Below are positions 3,831 through 19,217 of a DNA stretch of 24,000 nt, piece after piece. The first letter of the stretch is position 1. The number at the start of each line of letters is the position of its first letter. A program made the translations under genes and the position numbers. Source of the DNA: Marinisporobacter sp. (GTDB taxonomy: Bacteria; Bacillota; Clostridia; Peptostreptococcales; Thermotaleaceae); NCBI GenBank assembly GCA_025210525.1, contig JAOARP010000047.1, positions 693,465 to 717,464 on the forward strand. The letters are read 5' to 3'. A model generated the notes under the pieces. The model had not been told where the DNA came from. It did no database searches and saw only the letters and a program-made list of their open reading frames with translations.

Positions 3831-4472
3831 CTATCCCCCTACCTCTCTTTGAATCATATACCTTCCACTATAGCTTAGTTGTATATAATAGTCAATAATC
3901 CTTCTTTTCCATTTCCCTAAGGGTTTTATCGGGTTTTCAGATAGGCGCTGGTGGTCATTTTCTAAATCTAACTCTATCTCTAAATCTAACTCTATCTCTA
4001 TCTCTTTCTCTATCTCTGGTGGACATTTGTCCTCTACTACTTCAAAATTGTCCTGATCGTTTTGGGACTTTTGTCCTTTTAACAACTCTTCTTTTCTTTC
4101 TGCCATCCTTTTTTTATAATCACTTACTCTCTTTTCTTCTGTTCTAGAATCTCCAACAAATTCTTGAATATGTAACATAAATATAGTCCCATCCTCTAAA
4201 ACTTCAATGAGTCCTAATGTCTTAAAAATTTCCAAAGCACCCCTTACCGTATCCTCATCCATAGATACAACAGTCGCTAACATCTTTTCATCATATGTAA
4301 TATATTCATTTAATTTTAGTTCCCCTTCAAACTTTAAGGATTTAAGATACATTTTTAGAATCAAATTGCTGTATTTATATCCATTTTCCATGGATTCTAA
4401 AAATTTTATCTCAGGTCTATCAAAAAAGTTATCCATTAGCTTTATGTAATAATATTTATGGTTAGTACACAT
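3831..4472 (-). CDS. Phage replisome organizer N-terminal-domain-like protein with an acidic repeat linker
   Basis: The N-terminus YYYIKLMDNFFDRPEIKFLESMENGYKYSNLILKMYLKSL...YDEKMLATVV...TVRGALEIFKTLGLIEV resembles the Phage_rep_org_N family as I recall it. An AAGGAGAG SD lies 6 nt before the ATG. The gene ends 7 nt before the ABC exporter start. Confidence 0.6.
   Translation of the reverse strand: MCTNHKYYYIKLMDNFFDRPEIKFLESMENGYKYSNLILKMYLKSLKFEGELKLNEYITYDEKMLATVVSMDEDTVRGALEIFKTLGLIEVLEDGTIFMLHIQEFVGDSRTEEKRVSDYKKRMAERKEELLKGQKSQNDQDNFEVVEDKCPPEIEKEIEIELDLEIELDLENDHQRLSENPIKPLGKWKRRIIDYYIQLSYSGRYMIQREVGG
3961..3996. repeat. 18-bp tandem repeat x2 (tctaaatctaactctatc) inside the CDS, followed by a degenerate tct/atc tract
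   Basis: Two exact adjacent copies at 3961-3978 and 3979-3996. They encode the acidic stretch EIELDLEIELDLE. Confidence 0.85.
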
Positions 4473-4782: not shown

Positions 4783-5979
4783 TTAATAAATTCTATGTTG
4801 TTCAAATTCTTCCTTCACTTTATCCATCAATTCCTTACTATTAAACAGTTCCAAAACTGAATATGAAAATGCTTTTACAACCATACTTATTTTTTCTTTT
4901 GCCTCTTTACTATTGGCGTACCCTAAAAATTCTTCTTCGTGAACCTTTGCTATCCCATCTGCAATACCAATATTGCCATACATTGTAGGTGCAGCATAGC
5001 TGACATTTCCTACATCAGTTGAGCCTGGTATTTCATCTCTTTGACTAAAATTTTCAAATCCTACTTTTTCAAGATTTTTTCTAGCTATTTCAAGAAGGGT
5101 TTTATTGACTACAAGGTCATCGAATGAATTTTCAAACTTTTTTATTTCTAATTTTGCCCCTGTCATCAAAGCAGCTCCTCTAGCACAATTTTTTACTTTT
5201 TCCGATACAATATCTAAGTATTTTCTTTTTTGCGCTCTAACATAAAACTTACAGCTACAATGATCAGGAATAATATTAGGTGCTTCTCCGCCTTTTGTAA
5301 TGATTCCATGAATTCTAACATCTTGTTTTAATTGTTGTCTTAATGCACTTATTCCAGCAAAAGTTAAATTTACTGAGTCTAATGCATTTATTCCATCAAA
5401 AGGATAAGCTGCTGCATGACTTGCTTTTCCTATAAATTCAAATTCCCATGAATCCATTGCTAATGCTTTTGCTCTAAGATTATTTTCCTCGTATAAATGC
5501 ATTTGAAAGACTGCATCAATATCTTTAAATGCACCTTTATTAACTAAATCAACTTTGCTTCCAATAGTCTCCTCAGCAGGTGTTCCCATAACTACTATTT
5601 TACCTTTAAATTCTTCTTTCATTTTCGATAGAATTATTCCTGTTCCTACAGTAGTAGCTGCTATCCAATTATGTCCACATGCATGGGCTGGTTCTTTTTT
5701 TTCTCCATAACCAGGTAAAGCATCATATTCCGCTAAAAACGCTATAGTAGGTCCAAATTCATCTCCAAATTCAGCTCTAAAAGAAGTATCTATCCCTAGA
5801 TATGGATATTGGATTCTAAAATCATGCTTTTCCAATAAATCTACAATAAATTTAGAAGACTTATATTCTTCAGCGCCTAATTCTGGATGATTAAAAATAT
5901 AGTCACTTATGTTTTCAATTTCAGTTTCATATGATTTTACTAATTGATCTATTCTTTCTTGAACCAATTCTTCTCTCAT
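4783..5979 (-). CDS. M20 family amidohydrolase/metallopeptidase (AbgB/Acy1L2-like)
   Basis: Contains EYDALPGYG...HACGHNWIAATTVGTGI and a downstream GTPAEE block typical of M20D amidohydrolases. The ATG at 5979 is preferred over the GTG at 5988 because of SD spacing. Confidence 0.85.
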   Translation of the reverse strand: MREELVQERIDQLVKSYETEIENISDYIFNHPELGAEEYKSSKFIVDLLEKHDFRIQYPYLGIDTSFRAEFGDEFGPTIAFLAEYDALPGYGEKKEPAHACGHNWIAATTVGTGIILSKMKEEFKGKIVVMGTPAEETIGSKVDLVNKGAFKDIDAVFQMHLYEENNLRAKALAMDSWEFEFIGKASHAAAYPFDGINALDSVNLTFAGISALRQQLKQDVRIHGIITKGGEAPNIIPDHCSCKFYVRAQKRKYLDIVSEKVKNCARGAALMTGAKLEIKKFENSFDDLVVNKTLLEIARKNLEKVGFENFSQRDEIPGSTDVGNVSYAAPTMYGNIGIADGIAKVHEEEFLGYANSKEAKEKISMVVKAFSYSVLELFNSKELMDKVKEEFEQHRIY

Positions 5980-6048
5980 ATCTCCCACCCCTTTGATCTT
6001 TTATATTTATAATTTTGTATATTTTTTCAAATATATCTGTTATTAACT

Positions 6049-9000
6049 TTAACCTAATATATAATCCTGTTTTTCTTCTGCTACCCTATCACCTTGAATA
6101 TCTTCTACACTCACATTTCCACACATTTTTTCTGCTTGTCTCATAACTATTTTAAGCGCTTTTTTCGCGTGCTCTGGTGGATAATCATATTTTTTAAGTA
6201 GTCTTTTAATAATCCTTCTCATACCAGCTTGCGCACTTTTTCTAATACTCCAATCAATAGTAATATTATTTCTAATAGCAAGGGTCAATTCCTGAGCAAT
6301 TTTCTTTAGGACTTCATCTTCCATAAAATCTTTCACAACTGCATCTGCTGTTAAAGCATCATAAAAGGCAATTTCATCTTCATTCAATCCTAAATCAGCT
6401 TCTTCTTCTCTTGCTTTTTTCATCTCATGAGCCATTCGAATGAGTTCTTCTATAACTTCAGCATTGGTAATAGCTTGATTACGATACTTATTAAGAGCTT
6501 TTTTTAATTTTTCTGAGAACTTTTCAGATTTTACTAAATTTCTCTTTTCCATGGACTTAATATTGCCCTCGAGTAATTTTTTAAGCATCTCTACTGCTAA
6601 ATTCTTATGCTTTATTCCTCTTACTTCTTCTAAAAATTCCTCAGATAAAATTGAAACTTCTGGTCTTTTGAGTCCCATAGCATCAAATACATCAATGACA
6701 TCCTCTGAAATAATAGAACGCTCTAGCATTTGATTTACTCTTGCTTCAATTTCTCTCTTTGATTTCTTTTGGTTATGCTTTTGCTTAAGCTTAGAAAGAC
6801 TCGCCTTTACTGCTTTAAAATAGCTAATTTCAAGTGATTTTGCTTTCCCTTCATCTGTAGCTGCACATAAAGAATGTGCTTTTGATAATTCGATAGCTAT
6901 TTGCTTAAATTCTTTTTGCTCTTTTTCTGGTTTCCCAAGAATAAAATCCATACCACCTGTAATAGCTCTTATTCTCTCTACTTGTGATGTACCCATATAT
7001 TTTGAATAATCAAACCCATGCATCATATCTCCTAGTATTTCAAGCTTCTCTAGCATGATGCCTATAGCTACAGATGTATCAATACCAGTATTTTTCTTAT
7101 CTGAATCTGTATATTGTTTTAATGCTCTTTTTAAACTTTCAAGAATCCCCAGATAATCAACAACCACGCCACCTGATTTATCTTTAAATACCCTATTCAC
7201 CCTTGCAATCGCCTGCATAAGATTATGTCCCTTCATGGGCTTATCAATATACATAGTATGCATAGAAGGTACATCAAAACCTGTTAACCACATGTCTCGA
7301 ACAATAACGATCTTTAATTCATCATTATGATCCTTCATCCTTTTAGCTAATGTATCTCTTCTTTGCTTCCCTCCAACATGTTTTTGTAGTCTTTCATTGT
7401 CAGAAGCACTCCCCGTCATAACCACTTTTACTTTTCCTTTATCAATATCATCACTATGCCAATCAGGTCTTAATCTTACGATTTCATCATAAAGCTCTGC
7501 ACAAATTCTTCTACTCATACAAACAACCAGGGCTTTTCCATCTATGTTTTTTGATTTTTCTTCATAATGATTGACGATATCCTCTGCTAATTTTTTGATC
7601 CTGTTTGGTGAACCAACAACAGCTTCAAGTCTAGACCACTTGGTTTTGTTCTTTTCTCTCTCATTCTCTTCTTGTCCTTCTGTAACTTCTTCAAACTCAT
7701 CATCAATTTTTTTTAGTTCCTCTTCATCGGTTTCTAATTTTATAATTCTATTTTCATAAAAAATCTTTACAGTTGCTTTATCTTCAACAGCTCTAGTCAT
7801 ATCATAAACATCTATATAATGTCCAAATACAGCAGGTGTTGATTTATCTTCCATTTCAATAGGTGTTCCTGTAAAACCTATAAATGAAGCATTAGGAAGT
7901 GCATCTCTTAAATATTTTGCATAACCATATTTAACTTTTCCTGTTTTTGTATCTGTGGTAGCTTCTAATCCATACTGACTTCTATGAGCTTCATCTGCAA
8001 TGATAATCACGTTTTTTCTGTCTGTTAAAGCTGGCATTTCACCCTCTTCAGGCTTAAACTTTTGAATCGTGGTAAAAATAATGCCTCCAGCTTCTCTGTC
8101 ATTTAATAAATCATAAAGACCATTGATTTCTTTTGCCTTTGGTTTTGCTTGCTGTTTCTTTTGTTCATCTGTAAGCTTTCTAACATTCGCTTGTTTTGGA
8201 GTTTGCCTTAAAATATCCTTTGATTTAGAAAAGGTTGTAAATAATTGCTCATCTAAATCATTTCTATCTGTTATTACAACAATCGTTGGATTATTTAATT
8301 TTCTTACTAATCCAGCTGTATAAAACACCATAGAAAAACTCTTTCCAGACCCTTGCGTATGCCAAACAACACCAATCTTTCGATCCCCATTTTCTTTGGT
8401 TGCTTCTTTTGTCTTCTCAATAGCTTTGTTTACTGCAAAATATTGATGATAAGCAGATAATATTTTAATGATCGTTTTTTTATCTCCTATTTTATTTCCT
8501 TCTAAATCCTTTTCTTCGTCCTTTGATTCTTGGAATAATAAAAAGTTTTGAATAATATCTAATACCCTATCCTTTGCAAGCATCCCATTAAATAAAACTT
8601 CATACTGTGGCTTTGATAGTGGTTCAATATTTTCTCCATCAATACTTCTCCAATTCATAAAACGCTCTTCATTTGATGTAATAGTTCCAGCCTTTGCATT
8701 TATTCCATCAGATAGAATACAAAATGCATTGTAATTAAAAAGAGATGGTATATCTCTTTTATAGGTTTGTATCTGATTATAGGCTTGTTCAACCCCTACA
8801 TTTTCATCACTAGCTGATTTTAATTCCACTACTACTAATGGAATCCCATTAATAAATATAATTAAATCTGGTCTTCTTTCTTCATTTTCAATGATAGTAA
8901 ATTGATTTACCACCAAAAATTCATTGTTATTTTTCTTCCCATATTTATCATCAAAATCTATGATAAAAGCACGTTTTGTTCTAATACCTCCATTTTGTTT

Positions 9001-9312
9001 GAACGAAACCTCTATTCCCTCTACTAAAAGTTTATGAAAACTTCTATTGTTTTCAATAAGGCTGGGACTATTAAAGCTAATAATCTGTCTATAAGCCTCT
9101 TCTAACGCTTCTGCTGGCAAATCTCTATTGATTCTAAATAAAGAATCCCTTACCCGATCTTCTAAAATGACTTCACGATAATCTTTTCTCTCACGATACG
9201 CTCCATCACATGAAATATCTGGAGCAAATACATAATCATACCCTAATCCCTGCAAAATCTCTATGGCTGCTTCTTCTAAAAAAGCTTCTGTAAAGTTTTC
9301 TAATAAACTCAA
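6049..9312 (-). CDS. hsdR: Type I restriction enzyme, R (endonuclease/translocase) subunit
   Basis: 1087 aa. The N-terminal nuclease region contains [18 protein letters not shown]. Helicase motif I is [11 protein letters not shown] and the DEAH box is [10 protein letters not shown]. Later SF2 motifs ([12 protein letters not shown]) are present. TTG start at 9312 with a GGGGG SD 7 nt upstream. Confidence 0.95.
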
Positions 9313-9493
9313 AGCTTTTTCCCCCTTTCAACCTTTTATCATTTGAATAATATATCTCCGCTTACAAGTCAATTATCCCATTACCCTTTGGATAATTTTG
9401 TAATAAATCTCATTATTTTATATTGCTTTAATTTACTTTCTCGTGTATAATTTAGACATAATAGCATAGGTTAATTATATAATGCTTAAACGA

Positions 9494-9587
9494 GGCGAGT
9501 GATTTGATCCTTGCTATTCGTCAATTGGCATTATTCTAGGGCATAATAAGAATCTTAGTTATTTGGTGAGTGATTTGTTCCTTACTA
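9494..9587. repeat. Two 23-nt direct repeats (20/23 identical) in the SIR2-hsdR intergenic region
   Basis: ggcgagtgatttgatccttgcta (9494-9516) and ggtgagtgatttgttccttacta (9565-9587), 71 bp apart start to start. Confidence 0.6.
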
Positions 9588-9591
9588 AATG

Positions 9592-11169
9592 CTAGGATTC
9601 TTTAGTTTTATAGGACTTTAACCAGTCATAAATCTTAATCAATCTTCTAAAGTTAGTTTTATCTGTACCTTTTCCATCTGTAAAAATATTGCTATTATTT
9701 TTATAAAAATCTCTCAGAAAATCCTCAAGTTCTTCCACATCTATATTATCTTTTTGTAAAAGAGGTATTAATTCTAAACTCTTATATACTGTATGATTTC
9801 TTACAATATCATCTACCCTCTTATTTTCATAATCTTTTCTTTTCTTATGATTTCGTATAGTTCTACTTAACAACTCGTCATAATTAGATTTGATTGAATC
9901 TTCTATATATCTTGGTAAATCAACTGTTGCCTTTGCTATATATTTGTATATAGGAACACTCCCCGTATTATGCTTTAGTAATATAGGCAAACTTTGAGTA
10001 ACTACCAAATTCGAATCAAAATTTTTATTATCAAACAGGACATCTTCAAATATCTCCTCAACTTTCAATCCAGAATATCCTTTTTTTCCAAACTCTGATA
10101 ATACTCCTACACCAACTACAAATTCAACATTATCAAGATTCACATCATCTTCTATTCCAACAACTTGCATTTTGGTGGTAGGCTCATTATTAACTACCAA
10201 TTCATAGATTTCTTCTTTAAGTCTTCTTAATACAGTAGTATTATATTTAAATTTATTTTTTAATAATTCGTCATACAATATTGAATAATCTTTGATATAT
10301 ACTCTTGTCATTTCTAAGGTTTTATCATCTTCAAAAGATATGCTATGGGTTGATATTTCATCCTCTTTATCTGAATCATTCCATTCTACAAATATGAGTC
10401 TCTTTTTTAAACTTGCTAGCTTTTCTTTGGAGAGGCATTTCACAATTGATTTTAAAATCCCCTTAATATTTTTATCTCCAATAGAATAACCAAGAAATAT
10501 AATCGGATGTTCTAAAAATATAGTCAATATTTTAGCTGCTAAATACGCATTTTTTTCTTCAAATTCTAAATAATCTTTTTCATTAATCACTATAGAATCT
10601 GGCTCAGTACAACATCCATGAATTTTATATATTTCCCCTACCCCTTGTATATTTGAAAATATTAATTCTTCCTGTCCTACATATCTTGTATAATTCATCA
10701 AACTTTCTTCTATAAAAGTATCATAATTGGTTGTAATCACTGATGCTATACTTTTTTTACCGAGCTTTTTGAATAATTCTATTTCTTTGTCATATTCTAC
10801 TTTTACGTCCTGTGAATGATCTTTAATATATTTAGCAATTTCTATTTTAAGTGGTGATACCCCTTCAATCGCAAGTTTCTTATATATTTCTCTACTATCT
10901 TTGAATTTAAGATGTTCAAACCACAAATCAGAAATATCATGCTCTATTAATTCAGCAATTTTTTGATATTCGCCTACTTTAAACCCTTCATTTTTCGCTT
11001 TCCTACTATAAATTTCAAAAGCCAATTCATTGTCCTTAGCGAGCTTTGCCATTTCACGTAATAAAGCTTCCCAATTTCCTAAACCTAAATATCTCCTTGA
11101 TAAACCAGCACCAATAAATAGAACTGGTGCTGTATCAAAATTTTCAAATAAGGTCTTTAGCTTTTGCAT
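9592..11169 (-). CDS. SIR2-like (SIR2_2/ThsA-type) domain protein with an uncharacterised C-terminal domain
   Basis: N-terminal blocks are VLFIGAGLS, VITTNYD (N148), IYKIHGC (H184) and IIFLGYSIGD, in the order and spacing typical of defence-type SIR2 domains. An AGGAGA SD lies 5 nt before the ATG. The gene starts 30 nt after the hsdS stop. Confidence 0.8.
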   Translation of the reverse strand: MQKLKTLFENFDTAPVLFIGAGLSRRYLGLGNWEALLREMAKLAKDNELAFEIYSRKAKNEGFKVGEYQKIAELIEHDISDLWFEHLKFKDSREIYKKLAIEGVSPLKIEIAKYIKDHSQDVKVEYDKEIELFKKLGKKSIASVITTNYDTFIEESLMNYTRYVGQEELIFSNIQGVGEIYKIHGCCTEPDSIVINEKDYLEFEEKNAYLAAKILTIFLEHPIIFLGYSIGDKNIKGILKSIVKCLSKEKLASLKKRLIFVEWNDSDKEDEISTHSISFEDDKTLEMTRVYIKDYSILYDELLKNKFKYNTTVLRRLKEEIYELVVNNEPTTKMQVVGIEDDVNLDNVEFVVGVGVLSEFGKKGYSGLKVEEIFEDVLFDNKNFDSNLVVTQSLPILLKHNTGSVPIYKYIAKATVDLPRYIEDSIKSNYDELLSRTIRNHKKRKDYENKRVDDIVRNHTVYKSLELIPLLQKDNIDVEELEDFLRDFYKNNSNIFTDGKGTDKTNFRRLIKIYDWLKSYKTKES

Positions 11170-11199
11170 GCTTATCTCCTTTCTATTAAAATTTAAATT

Positions 11200-12459
11200 T
11201 TATGATACTTCATCCTTTGAATCAAATGGTACTCGGATTTCTCCTGACATTAGTTTTGGAAGAAGAGTGTCTCTAATACTTTTTAAATTTCTTGACTCTT
11301 TATCTAGCACTAAATATTGTTTGTCCAAGCATGATATAGTATCATCAAATTTTCTTATCATCTCAGCTGTGGGCTTTATAATTTTTATTCCTTTTAGATC
11401 TTTTTGGTTTATAGACCCAAATACAGTTCCTTCTCCATTAAATACATTAAATTTCTCTTTTAATTCTAACATTGTATATAACAAATACGAGTTCTTGTTA
11501 TATTTTGAACTTAATGAACATAACCCTCTACCAATACAACATTCTTCATTCGCTATGTTAATATCACCAACAGGTGCTCTAACACTCATTAAAATATCAC
11601 CTGCATTAGCCATTCGCTTAGGTTCAGTTGTATATAATCTTCTATTTGGAAATCTATTCGAAAAATCTGTTCTTCCTTGATAAAAAACAACTCCTTCACC
11701 TATTTCATTATAAGTAGACCCTTTTGGCGATTGTCCCATTGTGATATTTGCAATTTCGTCTAATCTAGCTATTTCCCATCCCTTAGGAATCATCCCAAGT
11801 TCACTTTCAACCATTTCTCCTCCACTAGACTTGTACGGTTCTCCCTTTTCATTTGGAAATTCAAATTTTACAAACCATTGTTTGAATATTGCTTGTGCCA
11901 TTTCTTCAAGATTTTTATTAATTTGGTTGTTGACTTCGATTTTTTCGTCTAGTGTTGAAAGGATGTCAGCAATGACCTTTTGCTCTTCAAGTGGTGGCAA
12001 ATTGATCTTAAAATATAATAAATCATTCATTTTCATATTAGGCTGAGTTGATGTTCCACCACAAATAGCTTGAATATGTCCTTTATAACGCTTACTTTGC
12101 ATATTATAGTAAAGATAATTATAATCTATGATATCTTGATTTACCTTTATTCTAATCAATCCATTATTATATACTGACTTCAAATCTTTTTGGATAAGCT
12201 TATTAACTCCAATAGTTGCTCCTGTCCTAGCTACAATAATATCTCCTTTTTTCAACTGAAACTTTGAATAATTTCTATCTTCGACAGAACAAAATCCCCA
12301 CTCTTTAAATTCCTTTTGTTGTGAAATGTCCTGTATCCTTAAACACTTAATACCACTATCATACTCCACAATTGGTGCTCTTTTTATTGCATCTAATCCT
12401 GTATTTGAAGATAAAATTGTTTCAGATATGTTAACTTTTTTCCAATCACTAAAACTCAT
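11200..12459 (-). CDS. hsdS: Type I R-M specificity subunit
   Basis: Two target-recognition halves are separated by the central conserved helix [40 protein letters not shown] matching C-terminal helix is [17 protein letters not shown]. The ATG at 12459 (GGGGGG SD 7 nt upstream) is preferred over the TTG at 12465. It overlaps the hsdM stop. Confidence 0.9.
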
Positions 12460-13966
12460 ATCCAATCCCCCCTAGATTTTTTCTAATCTCATCTTCTAGG
12501 CGTTTAGATTTAACAAACAACTCACTTAATTCACTTGTTAATTTCTCCATCTTTTCCTCAAATGGTATCCCATCATCTTCTACCTCTTCAATTCCAACAT
12601 ATCTTCCAGGTGTTAATACATATTCATGTTCTCTTACATTTTCTAATTTTGCTGATTTACAAAAACCTTTTACATCTTCATACTTTCCATCTATATTTCT
12701 CCAATTATGATAAGTCTTTGCAATCTTTTTAATATCATCATCCTTCAATTCCCTATGACGTCTATCAATCATTTCCCCTAAGTTTCTTCCATCTATAAAT
12801 AAAATTTCATTTTCTCTACTTCTAAACTTAGGATTGTTCTTTTTATTTCTATTTAAAATCCAAAGAGATACTGGTATTCCTGTAGAATAAAATAATTTAT
12901 CAGGCAATGCTACAATAGCATCTACTAGATCAGCTTCCAATAAATTTTTTCTGATTTCACCTTCATTAGAAGTATTTGAACTAAGGGAACCATTAGCAAG
13001 AACAATTCCTGCACAGCCATTTTGTCCTAGATGATAGATCATATGTTGAAGCCATGCATAATTTGCATTTCCCGCTGGTGGAGTACCATATTTCCATCTC
13101 ACATCATCTGTTAACTCTCCTCCACCCCAATCACTAATATTAAATGGTGGATTGGCTAATATATAATCAGCTTTTAGTGTTTTATGTAGATCATTATGGA
13201 AAGTATCATCATGATGACCTCCTACATTGGCATCTAATCCTCTAATGGCAAGGTTCATTTTACATAATTTCCAAGTAGTAGAATTAAGCTCTTGCCCATA
13301 TATGGATAAATTTTCAATTTTCCCTTGATGCTCTTCTACGAATTTCTCACTTTGAACGAACATCCCACCCGAACCACAACAAGGGTCATAAATTCTTCCT
13401 TGGTATGGTTCAATCATTTCTACTAAGGTTTTAACAACGCTAGTTGGTGTATAGAATTCGCCTCCACCTTTACCCTCTACACTGGCAAATTGACCTAAAA
13501 AATATTCATAAACTCTTCCAAGTAAATCCTTTTCTCCGTTTTCATGAAGCTTGATGGTTGAAATTAAGTCAATCAGCTCTCCAAGCCTTCTTTTATCTAG
13601 CTCTGGTCTTGCATAACGTTTATCTAGTACCCCTTTAAGGGTTGGGTTTTCTTTTTCTATTGCAATCATAGCATCATCTATATATTGTCCTATTTTAGAG
13701 TCCTTTGCATTGTCTTTGATATGACCCCATCTAGCTTCTTTTGGAACCCAGAATATGTTTTCATAGGTATATTCATCTCTGTCTTCCTCAAAACCATCAC
13801 CTTCTTCTAAAAGCTCTTCATATTTAGTTTCAAACTTATCAGAAATATATTTTAAGAATATAAGTCCCAATACTACATGCTTGTATTCACTTGCATCCAT
13901 ACTTCCTCTTAATTTATCTGCTGCTTTCCATAGTGTTTCTTCAAACCCAATATTTCCTGTTGTCAT
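12449..13966 (-). CDS. hsdM: Type I R-M N6-adenine DNA methyltransferase subunit
   Basis: HsdM N-terminal domain ([32 protein letters not shown]), SAM motif [12 protein letters not shown] and catalytic motif ILANPPF. A GAGGAGG SD precedes the start. Confidence 0.95.
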
Positions 13967-13987
13967 TTTTATTGCCTCCTCTTTTTC

Positions 13988-14434
13988 TTACTCAGCTATA
14001 CCAAATATTTCATAGAAATAATCTTTATCATTTTCTAATTCTTCTTGTAGCTCATTATCATCAATAAAAGTCTCTTTATCATACACACAATATACATGCT
14101 TTATAGTAAATTTATCTTTATGGTCTAATTTATAGGCTGTTACAACCTCTTTAACATGTTTTTTGTTTTTAGATTTTTGGATTACTACCCTATAAGTCTC
14201 TGAACCAAAGTCCTTTTCATAATAATGATTCCAACTGTTCCTTGAAGATTTATATACATAGTCTGGTTGCTCTAAAATATTTTTTATCTTTTCTATTGTT
14301 ATTTCAGGATGCCTAGTTTTTATATGATTTCTAAAATTTCGATAATACAAAATAATTTTTTCATGAATTCTTCCTTTAATTCTAAAAATCTTTAATTTAT
14401 TTTCAAAATAGTATTCCACCTTACATCTCCTCAT
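13988..14434 (-). CDS. Small basic protein of unknown function; possible RelE/BECR-fold toxin-like protein
   Basis: The ORF lies 21 nt upstream of hsdM. It has the motif HIKTRHPEITIEKIKNILEQPDYVY, then a beta-rich core (YRVVIQKS...VVTAYK) and an acidic tail. An alternative start is the GTG at 14419 with a perfect AGGAGA SD 6 nt upstream. The fold assignment is only a resemblance. Confidence 0.55.
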   Translation of the reverse strand: MRRCKVEYYFENKLKIFRIKGRIHEKIILYYRNFRNHIKTRHPEITIEKIKNILEQPDYVYKSSRNSWNHYYEKDFGSETYRVVIQKSKNKKHVKEVVTAYKLDHKDKFTIKHVYCVYDKETFIDDNELQEELENDKDYFYEIFGIAE

Positions 14435-14455
14435 TTCAATAAACTTAACTTTCCT

Positions 14456-15049
14456 TTAAAAATTATGATCATCAAACACTTCAAAAATCTCTTCTTCAAA
14501 TTCTTCTTGTTCTGGTTCACTACTTACCCAATCAGGTAAAACTTCATAGTAATGTGCCAATGCTTCTATTGTCTTATGCAACACTACTTCATGCTGCACT
14601 TTTTCAACTAATTCAATAATTAATTTATATGTATCCATATAAGGATTATTATCTACTACATTTAAAGCTTCTTTAAATCTTTCCATAAGCTTCGCCTTTT
14701 CAATATTTCTTTCAATAGTATTCATTTCTTCTTTGTCATAAACAGGCACTTCTACAAGATCATTTACTTCGCCCACCATAAATTGTTTTTCATGCTTTTT
14801 TATAACTGGTTTTAAGTCCCTCTTTAATTTTTCTTTTTGAATCTCTAGTTTTTCTATTTCTGATAAATCTTCACTGAAATATTGTTGATTTAGTCCAAAG
14901 AGTTTTTCAAGTATGGGGAGGTATTTTTTAGGAATTTTTTGTTTCTTTTTTACCCACATGTTTATATTTTGTTTCTTAATTCCAAGCTTTTCTGCAAGTT
15001 CTATATGTTGCATATTATAAAGACTCAGAATATATTCTAATCCTATCAA
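14456..15049 (-). CDS. XRE/Cro-type helix-turn-helix protein with a coiled-coil middle and an acidic C-terminal tail
   Basis: The HTH is MQHIELAEKLGIKKQNINMWVKKKQKIP. TTG start at 15049 with a GGGGGTG SD 5 nt upstream. The C-terminus is SSEPEQEEFEEEIFEVFDD. Confidence 0.75.
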   Translation of the reverse strand: MIGLEYILSLYNMQHIELAEKLGIKKQNINMWVKKKQKIPKKYLPILEKLFGLNQQYFSEDLSEIEKLEIQKEKLKRDLKPVIKKHEKQFMVGEVNDLVEVPVYDKEEMNTIERNIEKAKLMERFKEALNVVDNNPYMDTYKLIIELVEKVQHEVVLHKTIEALAHYYEVLPDWVSSEPEQEEFEEEIFEVFDDHNF

Positions 15050-15070
15050 GTATTCACCCCCAGTTTTCTT

Positions 15071-15126
15071 TATATTGTCTTAGTCAATATAATAATATTG
15101 TACTTTCTTTTATTGTCCTAGTCAAT
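15071..15126. promoter_or_regulatory. Pair of operator-like 16-nt repeats flanking the -10 element
   Basis: tattgtcttagtcaat (15073-15088) and tattgtcctagtcaat (15111-15126) are 15/16 identical. Copy A sits in a 21-nt near-palindrome, tatattgtcttagtcaatata (15071-15091). Copy B overlaps the -35 and copy A covers roughly +2 to +17. Confidence 0.5.
15097..15125 (-). promoter_or_regulatory. Putative sigma-A promoter of the HTH, 148-aa, hsdM, hsdS, SIR2 operon
   Basis: The minus strand reads TTGACT (15125-15120), an exact 17-nt spacer, then TACAAT (15102-15097). Confidence 0.6.
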
Positions 15127-15323
15127 TATATTTATGAAATTTATGGAATTCACTTCACTTTGATATTTAAGCACTAAAAAACACCCATCCTTCGCAGATA
15201 GATGCTCTTTATAGTTTTGTTTATATAGTAAAACTATGTTCTTCACTCACATGCGGATACTCTTGAAGCAATATCACGCTCAAATAACTTCGCAATAATA
15301 TCCTTATTATCCTATAATATGTT

Positions 15324-15350
15324 AAAACCTCCCTATGTTAGGAAGGTTTT
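15324..15350 (-). terminator. Rho-independent terminator of the two-gene cassette
   Basis: A 10-bp stem with one mismatch (aaaacctccc / ggaaggtttt) and a 7-nt loop. It begins 4 nt after the stop of the 60-aa ORF, and the stem runs into TTTT on the minus strand. Confidence 0.5.
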
Positions 15351-15354
15351 AATA

Positions 15355-15537
15355 TTATGCTCTTGCTACTTTTGACATAGCTATTCTTTTAGTTTCCACT
15401 CTTATCATACCTTTTCTATCAGTTGTAGGCATCACCCAACTATTGTTTTTTATTTCTTCAACAGTAGTTAATCGCTTTATCTTTACTCCTGCACTTCTAA
15501 ATCTTTCTTCCACAGTATTAACAGTTTTTGTTTTCAT
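15355..15537 (-). CDS. Small basic protein (60 aa), unknown function, translationally coupled to the upstream gene
   Basis: The ATG at 15537 lies 1 nt after the TAA stop (15541-15539) of the 376-aa ORF. A GAGGGTG SD sits inside the end of that ORF. The sequence is MKTKTVNTVEERFRSAGVKIKRL... and is K/R-rich. Confidence 0.55.
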   Translation of the reverse strand: MKTKTVNTVEERFRSAGVKIKRLTTVEEIKNNSWVMPTTDRKGMIRVETKRIAMSKVARA

Positions 15538-15538
15538 A

Positions 15539-16669
15539 TTAATCACCCTCTATACTACTAGTATACATTATTTCAGTATCTTTTTTCAAACTTTTTTCAA
15601 AATCATTAATTATATTATTAACCAAATCACGCCAGTTTGGAAAATTAGTTATATTAGGTAATAGAGATAACAATATAACATATTCTTTTCCATTTAGTTC
15701 AAAACATCTTGTGACATAAATTCTTCCTTTCTTTTTACTATATCCATTATTCATGAATACATGTGCATTAATTTTTAATATTCCCGCTAAAATGCCAGTT
15801 CTTTTTATACTTCTTAATACATTATTATTGATATCATCATCAAATACATTAACAGAGTATACCACATCATTATCATATTCATTTCTGATTTTAATGTTTA
15901 TCTCAAAGCATAGTTCAATCATTGATAGTAATATTGAATCCACCTCATCTAATTCTTCTAAATTTTTATTTTGGACTGTTGGCAAATACTTTCTGATAAA
16001 CCCATCTATCTTATCTTCTATATCTCCTCTTATTGTCTCTTCCATTTGATAACTCACTTGTAACTCTGATAGATTTTTTTTAGTTTCTATCGCATCAAGT
16101 TTTTTCACTTTTTCTAATATATCATTTATGTCAAAATAAATTGCATTAGGTATTTTATAATAATTTTGTATCATAGCATTTATATCAATATCTTCAAATG
16201 CACAACCATTAATATATTTTACCTTTATGGTTGTCACTTCATTATTGATATTTTTAGAATATGTATATATTTGAGCACAATGTATTATGGAATTTTTGTC
16301 AGTCAATTTTCTAAGATGATTAAATAATAGTTCTTTTTCATAAAAACTAAATAAGTCTTTAAGTTTTGTAACCAATGTACCTGTTTTTAGTTCTAGCAAT
16401 CTATTCTTTTCTTGAATTTCCTTCTTTTTTTCACTGATTTTTTCTTCATATGGTGAAATGATCAAATTGCTTACTTCAGTTAAAATAATAATTGTAATGA
16501 TACTTCCAACAATCGCCCAAACAACTTTAATTGTTAGCTGATTATCTAAAAATTTAATCCAAAAGTCAGTTTTATCTGTGTGATTTGAAATATAATAGTC
16601 TAATAATTTTCCTAATATCCAAAGGATTAATACTGAAACTACTTTTACTAATTTCCCCCATTTTTTCAT
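15539..16669 (-). CDS. Membrane-anchored protein (2 predicted TM helices, coiled coil, ~270-aa cytoplasmic domain), unknown function
   Basis: Hydrophobic stretches at residues 7-23 and 47-71. A charged heptad-like segment follows (EEKISEKKKEIQEKNRLLELK). No P-loop or nuclease motif was seen. A GGGGA SD and a TATAAT -10 (16706-16701) lie upstream. Confidence 0.7.
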   Translation of the reverse strand: MKKWGKLVKVVSVLILWILGKLLDYYISNHTDKTDFWIKFLDNQLTIKVVWAIVGSIITIIILTEVSNLIISPYEEKISEKKKEIQEKNRLLELKTGTLVTKLKDLFSFYEKELLFNHLRKLTDKNSIIHCAQIYTYSKNINNEVTTIKVKYINGCAFEDIDINAMIQNYYKIPNAIYFDINDILEKVKKLDAIETKKNLSELQVSYQMEETIRGDIEDKIDGFIRKYLPTVQNKNLEELDEVDSILLSMIELCFEINIKIRNEYDNDVVYSVNVFDDDINNNVLRSIKRTGILAGILKINAHVFMNNGYSKKKGRIYVTRCFELNGKEYVILLSLLPNITNFPNWRDLVNNIINDFEKSLKKDTEIMYTSSIEGD

Positions 16670-17771: not shown

Positions 17772-18137
17772 ATGACAAAGAAAATTCTTCTAAAGTATAT
17801 ACAAATATTTAAACCAATGCCAGAATTACCTACTAAAAAAGTATTTCTCAATCAATATAAAAAACCTATTACCCCCAATGCCCTTGAAATGGTTATCACT
17901 AGGTTACGAAAAAAGACAGGCATTACACGCTTACACCCTCACATTCTTAGGCATACATTCGCTACTAAGTATTTAATTGAAGGTGGTGACATATTCTCAC
18001 TACAGCAGATATTGGGTCATACAAGTTTAGAGATGGTTAGAAGATACTCGCATCTAGCATCAAGCTATGTTATAGCGAACCATAAAAAGTTATCACCTTT
18101 GGATAATTTACAAAAAAGAAAGCATAATTTTTCTTAA
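17772..18137 (+). pseudogene. Tyrosine recombinase/integrase, C-terminal fragment only
   Basis: Contains box II and the catalytic tail, HPHILRHTFATKYL...GHTSLEMVRRYSHL (HxxR ... H ... Y). It lacks the N-terminal core-binding domain and the first catalytic Arg block. It is 121 aa, whereas full-length enzymes are roughly three times longer. It lies about 90 nt from a tRNA 3' end. Confidence 0.8.
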
Positions 18138-18229: not shown

Positions 18230-18306
18230 TGGCACACCCTGAGGGACTCGAACCCCCGACGAACTGATTCGAAGTCAGCCACTCTATCCAACTGAGCTAA
18301 GGGTGC
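18230..18306 (-). tRNA. tRNA-Arg (anticodon UCG)
   Basis: The reverse complement folds as a cloverleaf with anticodon loop CTTCGAA, T-loop TTCGAGT and an encoded CCA. Several G.U pairs are present, including 1:72. Confidence 0.8.
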
Positions 18307-18335
18307 ACGTTTATTTATACTATTATATGTTAAGA

Positions 18336-18359
18336 AAGTTAGCATATACATGCTAACTT
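18336..18359. other. 10-bp hairpin between tRNA-Gly and tRNA-Arg(UCG)
   Basis: aagttagcat-atac-atgctaactt. It could be a processing site or a weak terminator. Confidence 0.4.
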
Positions 18360-18365
18360 TAAAAT

Positions 18366-18439
18366 TGGAGCGGATGATGGGAATCGAACCCACGCTATCA
18401 GCTTGGAAGGCTGAAGTTCTACCATTGAACTACATCCGC
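18366..18439 (-). tRNA. tRNA-Gly (anticodon UCC), copy 1
   Basis: GCGGATGTAGTTCAATGGTAGAAC...CTTCCAA...GGTTCGATTCC...CCGCTCCA. Identical to the copy at 18816-18889. Confidence 0.92.
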
Positions 18440-18448
18440 AAATTTTAG

Positions 18449-18524
18449 TGGTGACCCATCCGCGGCTCGAACGCGGGACACCTTGATTAAAAGTCAAGTG
18501 CTCTACCAACTGAGCTAATGGGTC
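18449..18524 (-). tRNA. tRNA-Lys (anticodon UUU)
   Basis: GACCCATTAGCTCAGTTGGTAGAGC, anticodon loop CTTTTAA, T-arm CCGCGTTCGAGCCGCGG, encoded CCA. Confidence 0.92.
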
Positions 18525-18529
18525 TTATA

Positions 18530-18606
18530 TGGGGTGGATGATGGGATTTGAACCCACGCATGCAGGAGCCACAATCCTGTGTCTTAACCACTTGACTACA
18601 CCCACC
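18530..18606 (-). tRNA. tRNA-His (anticodon GUG)
   Basis: Anticodon loop TTGTGGC. An extra 5' G gives the 8-bp acceptor stem (G-1:C73) characteristic of tRNA-His. CCA is encoded. Confidence 0.92.
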
Positions 18607-18607
18607 A

Positions 18608-18684
18608 TGGCGGGTCCACAGGGATTCGAACCCCGGACACACGGCTTAGAAGGCCGTTGCTCTATCCAACTGAGCTATGAACCC
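18608..18684 (-). tRNA. tRNA-Arg (anticodon UCU)
   Basis: GGGTTCATAGCTCAGTTGGATAGAGC, anticodon loop CTTCTAA, T-loop TTCGAAT, encoded CCA. Confidence 0.9.
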
Positions 18685-18779
18685 AAGTCATATCTGCATC
18701 TTCATTTAATACTTTTAATGGAACCTAGCCTGTTAACTAAGCGATTCACGCAAAATCATAGATTTTGGTTCTCTGCTTA

Positions 18780-18805
18780 TATCCAACTGAGCTATGAACC
18801 CAAGT
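18780..18805 (-). repeat. Orphan duplicate of the 5' leader plus the first 22 nt of tRNA-Arg(UCU)
   Basis: The 26 nt tatccaactgagctatgaacccaagt are identical to 18663-18688. Homology stops in the D-loop, and no T-arm or anticodon arm follows. Confidence 0.8.
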
Positions 18806-18815
18806 TTTAAAAAAT

Positions 18816-18889
18816 TGGAGCGGATGATGGGAATCGAACCCACGCTATCAGCTTGGAAGGCTGAAGTTCTACCATTGAACTACATCCGC
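18816..18889 (-). tRNA. tRNA-Gly (anticodon UCC), copy 2
   Basis: Identical over 74 nt to 18366-18439. The aaaatt 3' flank is also shared. Confidence 0.92.
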
Positions 18890-18935
18890 GTATTGTTTTT
18901 CTTCAATCAAGAATTATTTGTCCTGACAAGATAAT

Positions 18936-18964
18936 ATATTATCACAATCACTTCATTCTGTCAA
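18936..18964 (-). promoter_or_regulatory. Internal sigma-A promoter of the tRNA cluster (drives Gly-Arg-His-Lys-Gly-Arg)
   Basis: The minus strand reads TTGACA (18964-18959), an exact 17-nt spacer, then TAATAT (18941-18936). Confidence 0.65.
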
Positions 18965-19012
18965 GACTTTTTTCACCATCCAATATTTTAATGAAATGTT
19001 GATCATTAAAGT

Positions 19013-19089
19013 TGGTCGAGGTGGCAGGATTTGAACCCGCGGCCCTCTGGTCCCAAACCAGATGCGCTACCAAACTGCGCTACACCTCG
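19013..19089 (-). tRNA. tRNA-Pro (anticodon UGG), copy A
   Basis: CGAGGTGTAGCGCAGTTTGGTAGCGC, anticodon loop TTTGGGA, T-loop TTCAAAT, encoded CCA. Confidence 0.92.
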
Positions 19090-19140
19090 TCATGATGAAA
19101 ACTTAGTCAATAAGCTTTAATGAAATGTTGATCATTAAAG

Positions 19141-19217
19141 TGGTCGAGGTGGCAGGATTTGAACCCGCGGCCCTCTGGTCCCAAACCAGATGCGCTACCA
19201 AACTGCGCTACACCTCG
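19141..19217 (-). tRNA. tRNA-Pro (anticodon UGG), copy B
   Basis: Identical to copy A. It is part of a ~128-bp tandem duplication that includes the downstream hairpin ctttaatga-N8-tcattaaag. Confidence 0.92.

Follow-up and report, generated by a model that had tools for sequence, protein, structure and literature searches.

The window, that is, the whole stretch of 24,000 nucleotides (nt) analysed here, is low-GC Clostridia DNA of Marinisporobacter sp. (assembly GCA_025210525.1, contig JAOARP010000047.1, positions 693,465–717,464 of the forward strand). Between the hsdS and hsdR genes of its type I restriction-modification (R-M) locus lies a gene encoding a SIR2 protein of 525 amino acids (aa), a new member of the catalogued, experimentally uncharacterised candidate family PDC-S25. 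The gap between this gene and hsdR contains, on the plus strand and convergent with SIR2, the gene of a structured small RNA (sRNA). The existence of this RNA element, its strand, structure, promoter, terminator and linkage to SIR2 are established by the comparison of loci, and the RNA is presumably expressed. It is this partner that gives the SIR2/R-M locus its interest. We describe the locus as a SIR2 NADase, an enzyme degrading nicotinamide adenine dinucleotide (NAD+), which would be controlled by a dedicated structured convergent RNA and is carried along within a type I R-M operon; the probability of this description is roughly 0.45, somewhat under one half. A more specific and more tentative version is a two-component SIR2–sRNA module, in which the RNA would restrain or arm the NAD+-depleting toxin, the C-terminal domain of the protein would read the tandem G.U-rich helices, and one clade would have become fixed as an R-M accessory. 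The features concerned are as follows.

9592..11169, minus strand: SIR2 protein of family PDC-S25, 525 aa, ATG start (Pfam, PADLOC, alignment)
9458..9612, plus strand: gene of the small structured RNA, about 150 nt (covariance model and fold; the start near 9458 is deduced from the promoter)
9423..9451, plus strand: predicted sigma-70-type promoter of the RNA, −35 box TTGCTT at 9423–9428, 17-nt spacer
9481..9532, plus strand: RNA module 2, outer helix of AAUGCU (9481–9486) with GGCAUU (9527–9532)
9548..9602, plus strand: RNA module 1, also the predicted terminator, stem of AAGAAUCUUAG (9548–9558) with CUAGGAUUCUU (9592–9602)

The SIR2 protein carries the motifs VLFIGAGLS, VITTNYD, IYKIHG and IIFLGYSIGD, with the codons of N148 and H184 at 10726–10728 and 10618–10620, respectively; the preliminary description, made from the sequence of the window, is correct as to the open reading frame (ORF), the four motifs and the coordinates of both codons. 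The Pfam search that it proposed yields SIR2_2 (PF13289) with E=3.4e-26 (92.4 bits against a cut-off of 24.5), the domain being N-terminal (approximately aa 1–290) and bearing G20/G22, N148 and H184. The latter two residues are unchanged across 25 homologues with identity as low as 47%. When the profile of these homologues is compared with the PDB (KomC, E=6e-16; SeThsA, E=3e-12; also DSR2), the family blocks ITTNYD and YKIHG align with TTNYD and (K/Y)xHG of KomC, SeThsA and DSR2. The H184 column corresponds to KomC H146 and DSR2 H171 (in DSR2, ITTNYD ... KVHG), and the deposited H146N and H146A chains of KomC deviate from the wild type exactly at this column. Thus the two residues singled out earlier do occupy catalytic columns, and sequence comparison establishes the protein as a defence-type SIR2 with intact catalytic residues; its SIR2 domain would be expected to consume NAD+.

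The full-length AlphaFold2 model has a predicted local distance difference test (pLDDT) score of 74, being weak at the catalytic loop (aa 164–209) and at aa 309–361, and Foldseek returns solely anti-phage SIR2 structures. The conserved C-terminal domain (approximately aa 296–525, 230 residues) is modelled as all-helical, with pLDDT above 90 for aa 360–525, and has no match in Pfam, among PDB sequences or among PDB folds (best Foldseek E=1.1). It has 835 cluster representatives at 50% identity in a library of 1.84 billion proteins; in the best 150 of these it is always C-terminal in proteins of about 515–555 aa or in fragments, and none of the 150 has it fused to another effector. Therefore the two-domain architecture is fixed. 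A 'SIR2 family protein' of a Marinisporobacter metagenome-assembled genome matches the window protein with 100% identity.

The statement that the gene fits no known SIR2 architecture has to be withdrawn, since the PADLOC model PDLC04968 of PDC-S25 matches the protein over its full length (E=7e-169, aa 2–519 of 525 against profile positions 12–514 of 517). The second PDC-S25 model, PDLC04967, gives E=1.4e-60. The PADLOC ThsA, SIR2 and Argonaute-SIR2 models are far weaker and cover the SIR2 part only; neither the PADLOC DSR models nor any NCBIfam model matches the protein. In PHROGs, it has a full-length match to phrog_2695 (E=2e-138), a family of unknown function. PDC-S25 is one of 145 'phage defence candidates' (PDC) put into PADLOC (Payne et al. 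2024, bioRxiv 10.1101/2024.01.29.577857). The candidates were nominated from their embedding in BREX, DISARM and type I R-M, the latter being also the setting in the window, and were described as untested by Payne, Hughes, Fineran and Jackson 2024 (same preprint). PADLOC lists PDC-S25 as a 'single gene' candidate; the main text of the preprint makes no mention of a convergent sRNA gene, which lies outside the PDC-S25 definition, and neither 'PDC-S25' nor 'SIR2' is present as text in the supplements. In the literature searched, one other paper contains the name PDC-S25, as a simple listing for a genome of E. coli O157; searches for SIR2 together with embedding or hsd genes gave, beyond these two papers, reviews only.

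In a protein search the family counts more than 2700 relatives, ranging over many bacterial phyla and one archaeon and including prophages and plasmid pXO2. A distant full-length relative (H46, 25.8% identity) is listed without annotation in Neisseria gonorrhoeae NZ_CP119140.1 at 1583012–1584490; this record is a chromosome filed among plasmids.

By sequence, the closest solved SIR2 domains are those of KomC (Kongming) and ThsA (Thoeris). KomC works with KomA and KomB, both missing from the window, and with a nucleotide signal. ThsA carries a SLOG domain and depends on ThsB, a TIR protein, both also missing here: the ThsA hidden Markov models (HMMs) align only with aa 125–298, and the window ORFs contain no TIR domain. 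HerA, a short Argonaute with APAZ and a fused STAND NTPase, which mark the SIR2-HerA, SIR2/pAgo (SPARSA) and AVAST-type SIR2 systems, are likewise absent from the 20 window ORFs scanned, in line with the earlier remark that the window encodes no partner of the TIR, HerA, Argonaute or STAND kind. DSR1 and DSR2 share with the protein the N-terminal SIR2 domain, the same catalytic Asn and His, the single polypeptide and a non-catalytic C-terminal domain; by analogy, their abortive NAD+ depletion would be the expected output of PDC-S25 too. However, DSR2 has about 1000 aa and an alpha-solenoid C-terminal domain binding the phage tail tube protein, whereas the PDC-S25 protein has 525 aa and an unrelated helical C-terminal domain, the DSR2 match covering aa 141–253 only. 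Further, an RNA partner has not been described for DSR, unlike PDC-S25 with its linked RNA.

The RNA gene was overlooked in the preliminary description, which considered the SIR2 gene as having no known partner. The latter correctly placed hsdR after a gap of 279 nt from the SIR2 stop; this gap is not an empty spacer. The 3' end of the RNA overlaps the SIR2 stop codon and final codons. Two covariance models (described below) detect it, R2 at 9477–9605 (+) with 41.2 bits (E=1.4e-7 within the window) and R3 with 62 bits (E=1e-9). The region 9458–9612 folds on the plus strand with −46.6 kcal/mol (z=−5.5) against −23.6 kcal/mol (z=−2.2) on the minus strand, and contains no ORF of 20 aa or longer within 9468–9591. 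The −10 box of the predicted promoter, TATAAT (9446–9451), is preceded by TG (together 9444–9451). Each module consists of an outer helix and an inner hairpin, the latter being GGCGAG...CUUGCU (9494–9515) in module 2 and GGUGAG...CUUACU (9565–9586) in module 1. In module 1 the outer stem is followed by UUUAGUUUUAU, and the module overlaps the SIR2 stop codon (9592–9594). Both modules are supported by the covariance-model alignment and by the 23-nt direct repeat D2, and module 1 also by the inverted repeat I1. Since the RNA terminator and promoter stand between SIR2 and hsdR, hsdR would be transcribed separately and, judging by this arrangement, must have a promoter of its own within 9313–9420. 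Read-through transcripts would be fully complementary to the RNA.

In the scan of the window with Rfam 15, the gathering score is reached by tRNAs only and not by the RNA element. The best Rfam match on the element is Srn266, a Streptococcus sRNA, which scores 18.6 bits where the gathering threshold is 63; at E up to 10 there is nothing credible. It aligns end to end with 9494–9601 (+) in the order hairpin, hairpin, hairpin-enclosing stem; this likeness could be distant kinship or chance. Next to the distant SIR2-like genes of two prophages from Streptococcus, Srn266 was looked for and not detected. For another locus, L048, Rfam gives no match. In Streptococcus phage IPP23 a distant, split pair of SIR2-like genes is followed, on the other strand, by a sub-threshold match to Spy779816, an S. 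pyogenes sRNA (L083, 4242–4323 (−); 39.6 bits against 67, E=0.002), a convergent arrangement as in the PDC-S25 family. The literature searched for SIR2 with non-coding RNA or RNA antitoxins contains no SIR2-associated non-coding RNA, and the conserved sRNA partner appears to be undescribed so far.

The conservation of the element was assessed in other loci. In related Clostridium loci the first ~170 nt past the SIR2 stop are conserved to the same degree as coding sequence. A 23-nt unit occurs twice there as a direct repeat, and an inverted repeat brackets its first copy and the stop codon. A scan of one genome per GTDB species produced 577 relatives, and the best 80 loci were analysed. All 80 were inspected, and almost everywhere, whether R-M is present or not, the same design is observed downstream of SIR2: an outer stem AAAGAGC...CCCTTT enclosing a small hairpin with AGCA...CACC flanks, a second copy of this unit 50–70 nt further on, and then a conserved ...ATTATACA...TTGTAAA block. 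On the opposite strand this ATTATACA/TTGTAAA block is a near-consensus promoter, e.g. TTTACA-17-TATAAT; the −10 block and the −35 block (GCAAT in the sense direction) are invariant in L001, L002, L003 and L005. Within the 70 nt preceding the RNA on its own strand, 68% of 56 loci have a sigma-70 match of 10/12 or better, compared to 1.2% of 1120 control segments.

RNAalifold, applied to the antisense strand of 25 loci, predicts two modules with 34 pairs, 16 of which show compensatory changes. Both modules have an invariant G.U/G-C/U.G helix, GGUG paired with UGCU, inside a variable covarying stem. Read on the SIR2 strand, these G.U and U.G pairs would turn into A.C mismatches, and the strand of the RNA is thereby fixed. 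In alignment A4, 97.3% of cells are paired, compared to 41–58% for slid partners, and none of 500 shuffles reaches the observed value. Alignment A7 comprises 38 diverse sequences, the window among them. The proportion of paired cells in it is 93.8%, although this percentage, as that of A5, is inflated by fitting to the model, unlike the one in A4, which was not fitted; 24 of the 34 pairs show compensatory changes, and covariation scores 0.64, compared to 0.26 for shuffles.

The covariance model R1 recovered 43 loci, and the rebuilt model R2, 56 of 81 sources at E<1e-4. All R2 matches lie opposite the SIR2 strand and abut the SIR2 stop, the overlap with the 3' end of the SIR2 ORF being −4 to +46 nt (56 loci); in 1.36 Mb all covariance-model matches with E<1e-3 are antisense at SIR2 3' ends, and the best off-site match has E=0.06. 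Model R3 adds L001, L003 and L069, bringing the RNA at the SIR2 3' end to 59 of the 80 loci, plus the window. Eight loci from Verrucomicrobia/Lentisphaerae escape the models; they carry a variant of their own, in which the terminator stem and the G.U/G-C/U.G core are retained. The RNA is a near-constant, not strictly universal, partner of the SIR2 family. In the methanogenic archaeon Methanolapillus africanus, a convergent RNA with 39 bits (L079, 11544–11661; E=2e-5) stands beside a SIR2 gene of 38% identity, an indication that the two were transferred horizontally together.

The exact 24-nt motif of module 1 was scanned against IMG/VR and metagenomes. IMG/VR yields four stretches on three contigs; in three of them a SIR2 gene or fragment ends beside the motif on the opposite strand, and the fourth is on the same contig as one of these. 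Out of 81 matches in metagenomes, 39 are convergent at a SIR2 3' end and four are on contigs that are too short. The remaining 38 are full-length RNAs with 64–115 bits from which the SIR2 gene is gone; in those examined, a mere few C-terminal SIR2 codons are left. These orphan RNAs (contigs L089–L168, e.g. L150 399–517 and L165 3984–4102) occur in at least 12 distinct downstream contexts, 21 matches falling in one context. The possibility that a SIR2 pseudogene, or a gene in another genetic code, is hidden in these loci was rejected, as tblastn with codes 11 and 4 retrieves only the C-terminal remnant of about 9 aa. In several of these contexts the neighbours, by sequence inspection, look like Dcm-type methyltransferase, restriction endonuclease or HsdR-like genes.

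Among the effectors of abortive infection SIR2 NADases form a major class, and, to our knowledge, those characterised so far all owe their control to a protein sensor domain, to a partner protein or to a signal of small-molecule type. As the most likely mechanism in the described locus, an abundant RNA would bind the SIR2 protein, probably via the C-terminal domain and with one module per protomer, and the bound RNA would silence the NADase, as a type III antitoxin does; alternatively, the 3' antisense overlap might lower SIR2 expression. Loss or displacement of the RNA caused by a phage would then free NAD+ depletion, and the infection would be aborted. The two like modules with an invariant wobble-rich helix resemble paired protein-binding sites, and SIR2 is the candidate binding partner because it is the sole conserved protein in stand-alone loci. 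SIR2 and the RNA are co-inherited across phyla, with clade-specific fixation behind hsdS. The NADase activity, binding of the RNA to the protein, its antitoxin role and the trigger are inferred. In the clade of the window, the cassette of SIR2 and RNA would have settled behind hsdS and been co-transcribed with hsdMS, the RNA terminator standing before hsdR; it would then serve as a second defence line travelling with type I R-M and not kept latent by the latter.

A parallel to this mechanism is provided by the type III systems ToxIN and AbiF, which also combine a protein effector with a dedicated, repeated, structured small RNA and are associated with abortive infection. ToxIN and AbiF have the RNA encoded ahead of the toxin gene and on its strand, and their toxins are RNases binding or processing this RNA (PMC13064643). 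The PDC-S25 RNA, on the contrary, is convergent and downstream and consists of two modules that are not identical, a SIR2 enzyme being the effector. Of the type III traits, the linked structured RNA gene with two modules is thus present (in the 59 loci and the window), whereas a same-strand upstream RNA and an endoribonuclease toxin are not. As to neutralisation of the protein by the RNA, the orphan RNAs may be an indirect hint, with which the pXO2 homologue lacking a recognisable RNA does not agree. By analogy, PDC-S25 would follow the type III working principle, but not the type III anatomy. If this is true, NAD+-depletion immunity has a new control logic and PDC-S25 is the first RNA-controlled NADase system of abortive infection; the 'single-gene' entry in PADLOC, a widely used resource, should be corrected, and Rfam gains an RNA family with a clear genetic partner. 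The two-part cassette of about 1.9 kb would make silencing of the R-M-embedded effector directly testable.

Several observations speak against the description of the locus as a SIR2 NADase with a dedicated RNA. The searched literature contains no experiment showing phage defence or NAD+ depletion by PDC-S25. The RNA promoter and terminator are predicted from consensus, and the inflation of the pairing percentages in the fitted alignments has been noted above. The convergent layout is typical of type I (antisense), not type III, toxin–antitoxin modules. In about 11 of the 80 loci no RNA could be resolved. Plasmid pXO2 of B. anthracis (L081, 3956–5728) encodes a full-length PDC-S25-type SIR2 protein with 36.6% identity, followed by a site-specific integrase, and downstream of this SIR2 gene there is a plain terminator hairpin and no recognisable two-module RNA; together with the loci lacking a resolved RNA, this suggests that the RNA may not be obligatory. 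Finally, a promoter match of at least 10/12 is kept in just four of 11 orphan contexts, and therefore many orphans may be decaying remnants.

The best-surviving alternative, although an unlikely one, is that the RNA acts solely as a type I-like cis-antisense RNA and does not bind the protein. Its targets would be the SIR2 mRNA, at the 3' end, and hsdR transcripts arising by read-through, and its base pairing would control mRNA stability or termination, as in txpA/RatA and bsrG/SR4 of B. subtilis. The convergent layout with 3' overlap fits this mechanism equally well. In type I toxin–antitoxin systems, a 3' overlap between the toxin gene and that of the antisense RNA is well established. The likeness to txpA/RatA and bsrG/SR4 includes convergent genes, the 3' overlap seen throughout the 56 loci and a strong independent promoter of the RNA, and the terminator hairpin is common to both strands. 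However, pure antisense action does not require a conserved covarying structure, and that of the PDC-S25 RNA is deeply conserved past the overlap; the second module, lying outside the overlap with the same invariant G.U/G-C/U.G helix, is left unexplained. Known type I toxins, including those of txpA/RatA and bsrG/SR4, which are small membrane peptides, are not 525-aa enzymes. Pairing in trans with the SIR2 translation start was considered as well and rejected: the RNAs show no cognate-specific complementarity to this region, cognate and non-cognate pairs being alike (p=0.66).

The next alternative follows from the position of the SIR2 gene among the R-M genes. The respective features of the window are as follows.

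14456–15049, minus strand: XRE-type helix-turn-helix (HTH) regulator, 197 aa (phrog_36540, E=2e-76)
13988–14434, minus strand: PBECR3-like nuclease of the Barnase/EndoU/RelE type, 148 aa (Pfam E=2.5e-7, barely over the cut-off)
12449..13966, minus strand: hsdM, methyltransferase subunit of type I R-M (Pfam N6_Mtase, E=7e-116; HsdM_N, E=6e-30)
11200..12465, minus strand: hsdS, specificity subunit (Pfam Methylase_S, E=5e-36, two stretches)
6049..9312, minus strand: hsdR, restriction subunit, TTG start (TIGR00348 hsdR, E=1.7e-179)

The identities of hsdM, hsdS and hsdR are upheld by Pfam, NCBIfam and PADLOC (MTase_I for hsdM, E=5e-244; Specificity_I for hsdS, E=5.5e-107), the Pfam domains of hsdR being HSDR_N, SWI2_SNF2 and T1RH-like_C. 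The hsdM and hsdS genes overlap by 17 nt. The SIR2 start codon is situated 30 nt downstream of the hsdS stop, with AGGAGA ahead of it and no hairpin in between, exactly as described earlier. Since no terminator-like hairpin was detected on the minus strand at 5900–15600, co-transcription of SIR2 with hsdMS in the window is plausible.

The neighbourhoods of the 80 loci were analysed by ORF calling and iterative HMM searches. The sole recurrent neighbour families are HsdR (24 loci), HsdS (23) and HsdM (20), invariably on the SIR2 strand, HsdS being directly upstream of SIR2 in 16 loci. The hsdS gene is expected as the immediate upstream neighbour by chance in roughly one of several thousand genes, and hence the enrichment of hsd genes beside the homologues, suggested in the preliminary description as something to look for, is real. 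At that, it is not uniform. Out of 65 informative loci, that is, those with enough flanking DNA, where about 10 kb were searched for hsd genes, 21 have at least two such genes, nine have one and 35 have none. In the neighbour-joining tree the clade of the window contains 23 leaves including the window, L003 to L021; 16 of them are R-M loci, one is a questionable R-M locus, one has no R-M and five are too short. The gene order in this clade is either M-S-SIR2-R or R-M-S-SIR2; other clades are mostly stand-alone. Altogether, M-S-SIR2-R is the order in the window and 11 related loci, and in six loci SIR2 is at the operon end (R-M-S-SIR2). Homologues without R-M include those from pXO2 of B. anthracis, the prophages phBC6A51 and BK5-T, and mycobacteriophage J1. 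Thus the link to R-M is specific to one clade and is not a trait of the whole family; as 35 of the 65 informative loci have no R-M, the family is independent of the latter.

These data bear on the suggestion, made in the preliminary description, that SIR2 is coupled to R-M in the manner of PrrC: the protein would be latent through binding to HsdMS(R) and freed by a phage anti-restriction protein. The RNA would then be secondary. The gene indeed occupies the prrC slot of EcoprrI, hsdM-hsdS-X-hsdR, where an effector would plausibly serve as a back-up for R-M, and this part of the suggestion stands. The operonic 30-nt junction with hsdS agrees with such coupling, as do the recurrence of HsdS, HsdM and HsdR, and of these alone, as protein neighbours and the linkage of 16 of the 18 informative loci in the clade of the window, always right after hsdS. 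Dependence on Hsd proteins as a property of the family does not stand, however, given the 35 loci without an hsd gene, the pXO2 and prophage homologues without R-M and the six loci with SIR2 at the operon end; among the partners it is the RNA that is widely conserved, and the Hsd proteins are not. PrrC itself is reported to be almost exclusively embedded in type I R-M (bioRxiv 10.1101/2024.01.29.577857), unlike the SIR2 family. Moreover, PrrC combines an ABC-ATPase with an anticodon nuclease and is kept latent by the R-M protein complex, whereas the SIR2 protein shows SIR2_2 only, is stand-alone in most loci and has its own RNA. Hence latency imposed by Hsd proteins seems improbable, more so than pure antisense control; it may still apply in the clade of the window, but the family at large does not need it.

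Still less probable is the absence of any functional RNA, the element being a bidirectional terminator combined with DNA that serves the next gene, in the window hsdR, as a promoter or operator. A-runs and T-runs do flank the outer stem on both strands, and in the window the element is just upstream of hsdR. On the other hand, it accompanies SIR2 whatever is downstream, including loci without hsdR; dozens of compensatory changes and the invariant G.U make sense only for an RNA of one strand; the near-consensus promoter is directed into the element and not away from it; and module 2 would be superfluous for termination. Finally, since SIR2 domains are found in protein deacetylases too, the protein might be a housekeeping sirtuin-type deacylase or a degenerate passenger with no role in defence, but nothing specific favours this and we consider it hardly credible, as the matching models are those of SIR2_2, PDC-S25 and the ThsA type and not of classical sirtuins, every structural neighbour is an anti-phage NADase, the ORF has remained intact and its conservation extends across phyla, and the gene sits in R-M operons, prophages (phrog_2695) and plasmids.

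The HTH and PBECR3-like genes are directly upstream of hsdM, with 21-nt gaps, and could be a toxin–antitoxin or regulator–effector pair within the hsd operon. Homologues of the HTH gene are again found upstream of hsdM in three related loci. A 376-aa ORF further upstream (15539–16669, minus strand) has no match in Pfam, NCBIfam, PADLOC or PHROG. Eight tRNA genes are clustered at 18230–19217 (−), and an integrase remnant of the phage type (121 aa, catalytic end only, 17772–18137, plus strand) adjoins tRNA-Arg(tcg). The GC content is 26–28% across 14–18 kb, compared to 32–40% past the tRNA cluster. A search for attachment-site repeats at the island borders in the window gave nothing convincing; still, the R-M/SIR2 cluster, together with the 376-aa ORF, appears to be inside a degraded integrative island. 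On the other side of hsdR, between an ABC transporter and an M20 peptidase, there is a phage replisome-organiser/DnaD-like ORF (3831–4472, minus strand; Phage_rep_org_N, E=4e-28), possibly another remnant of a mobile element.

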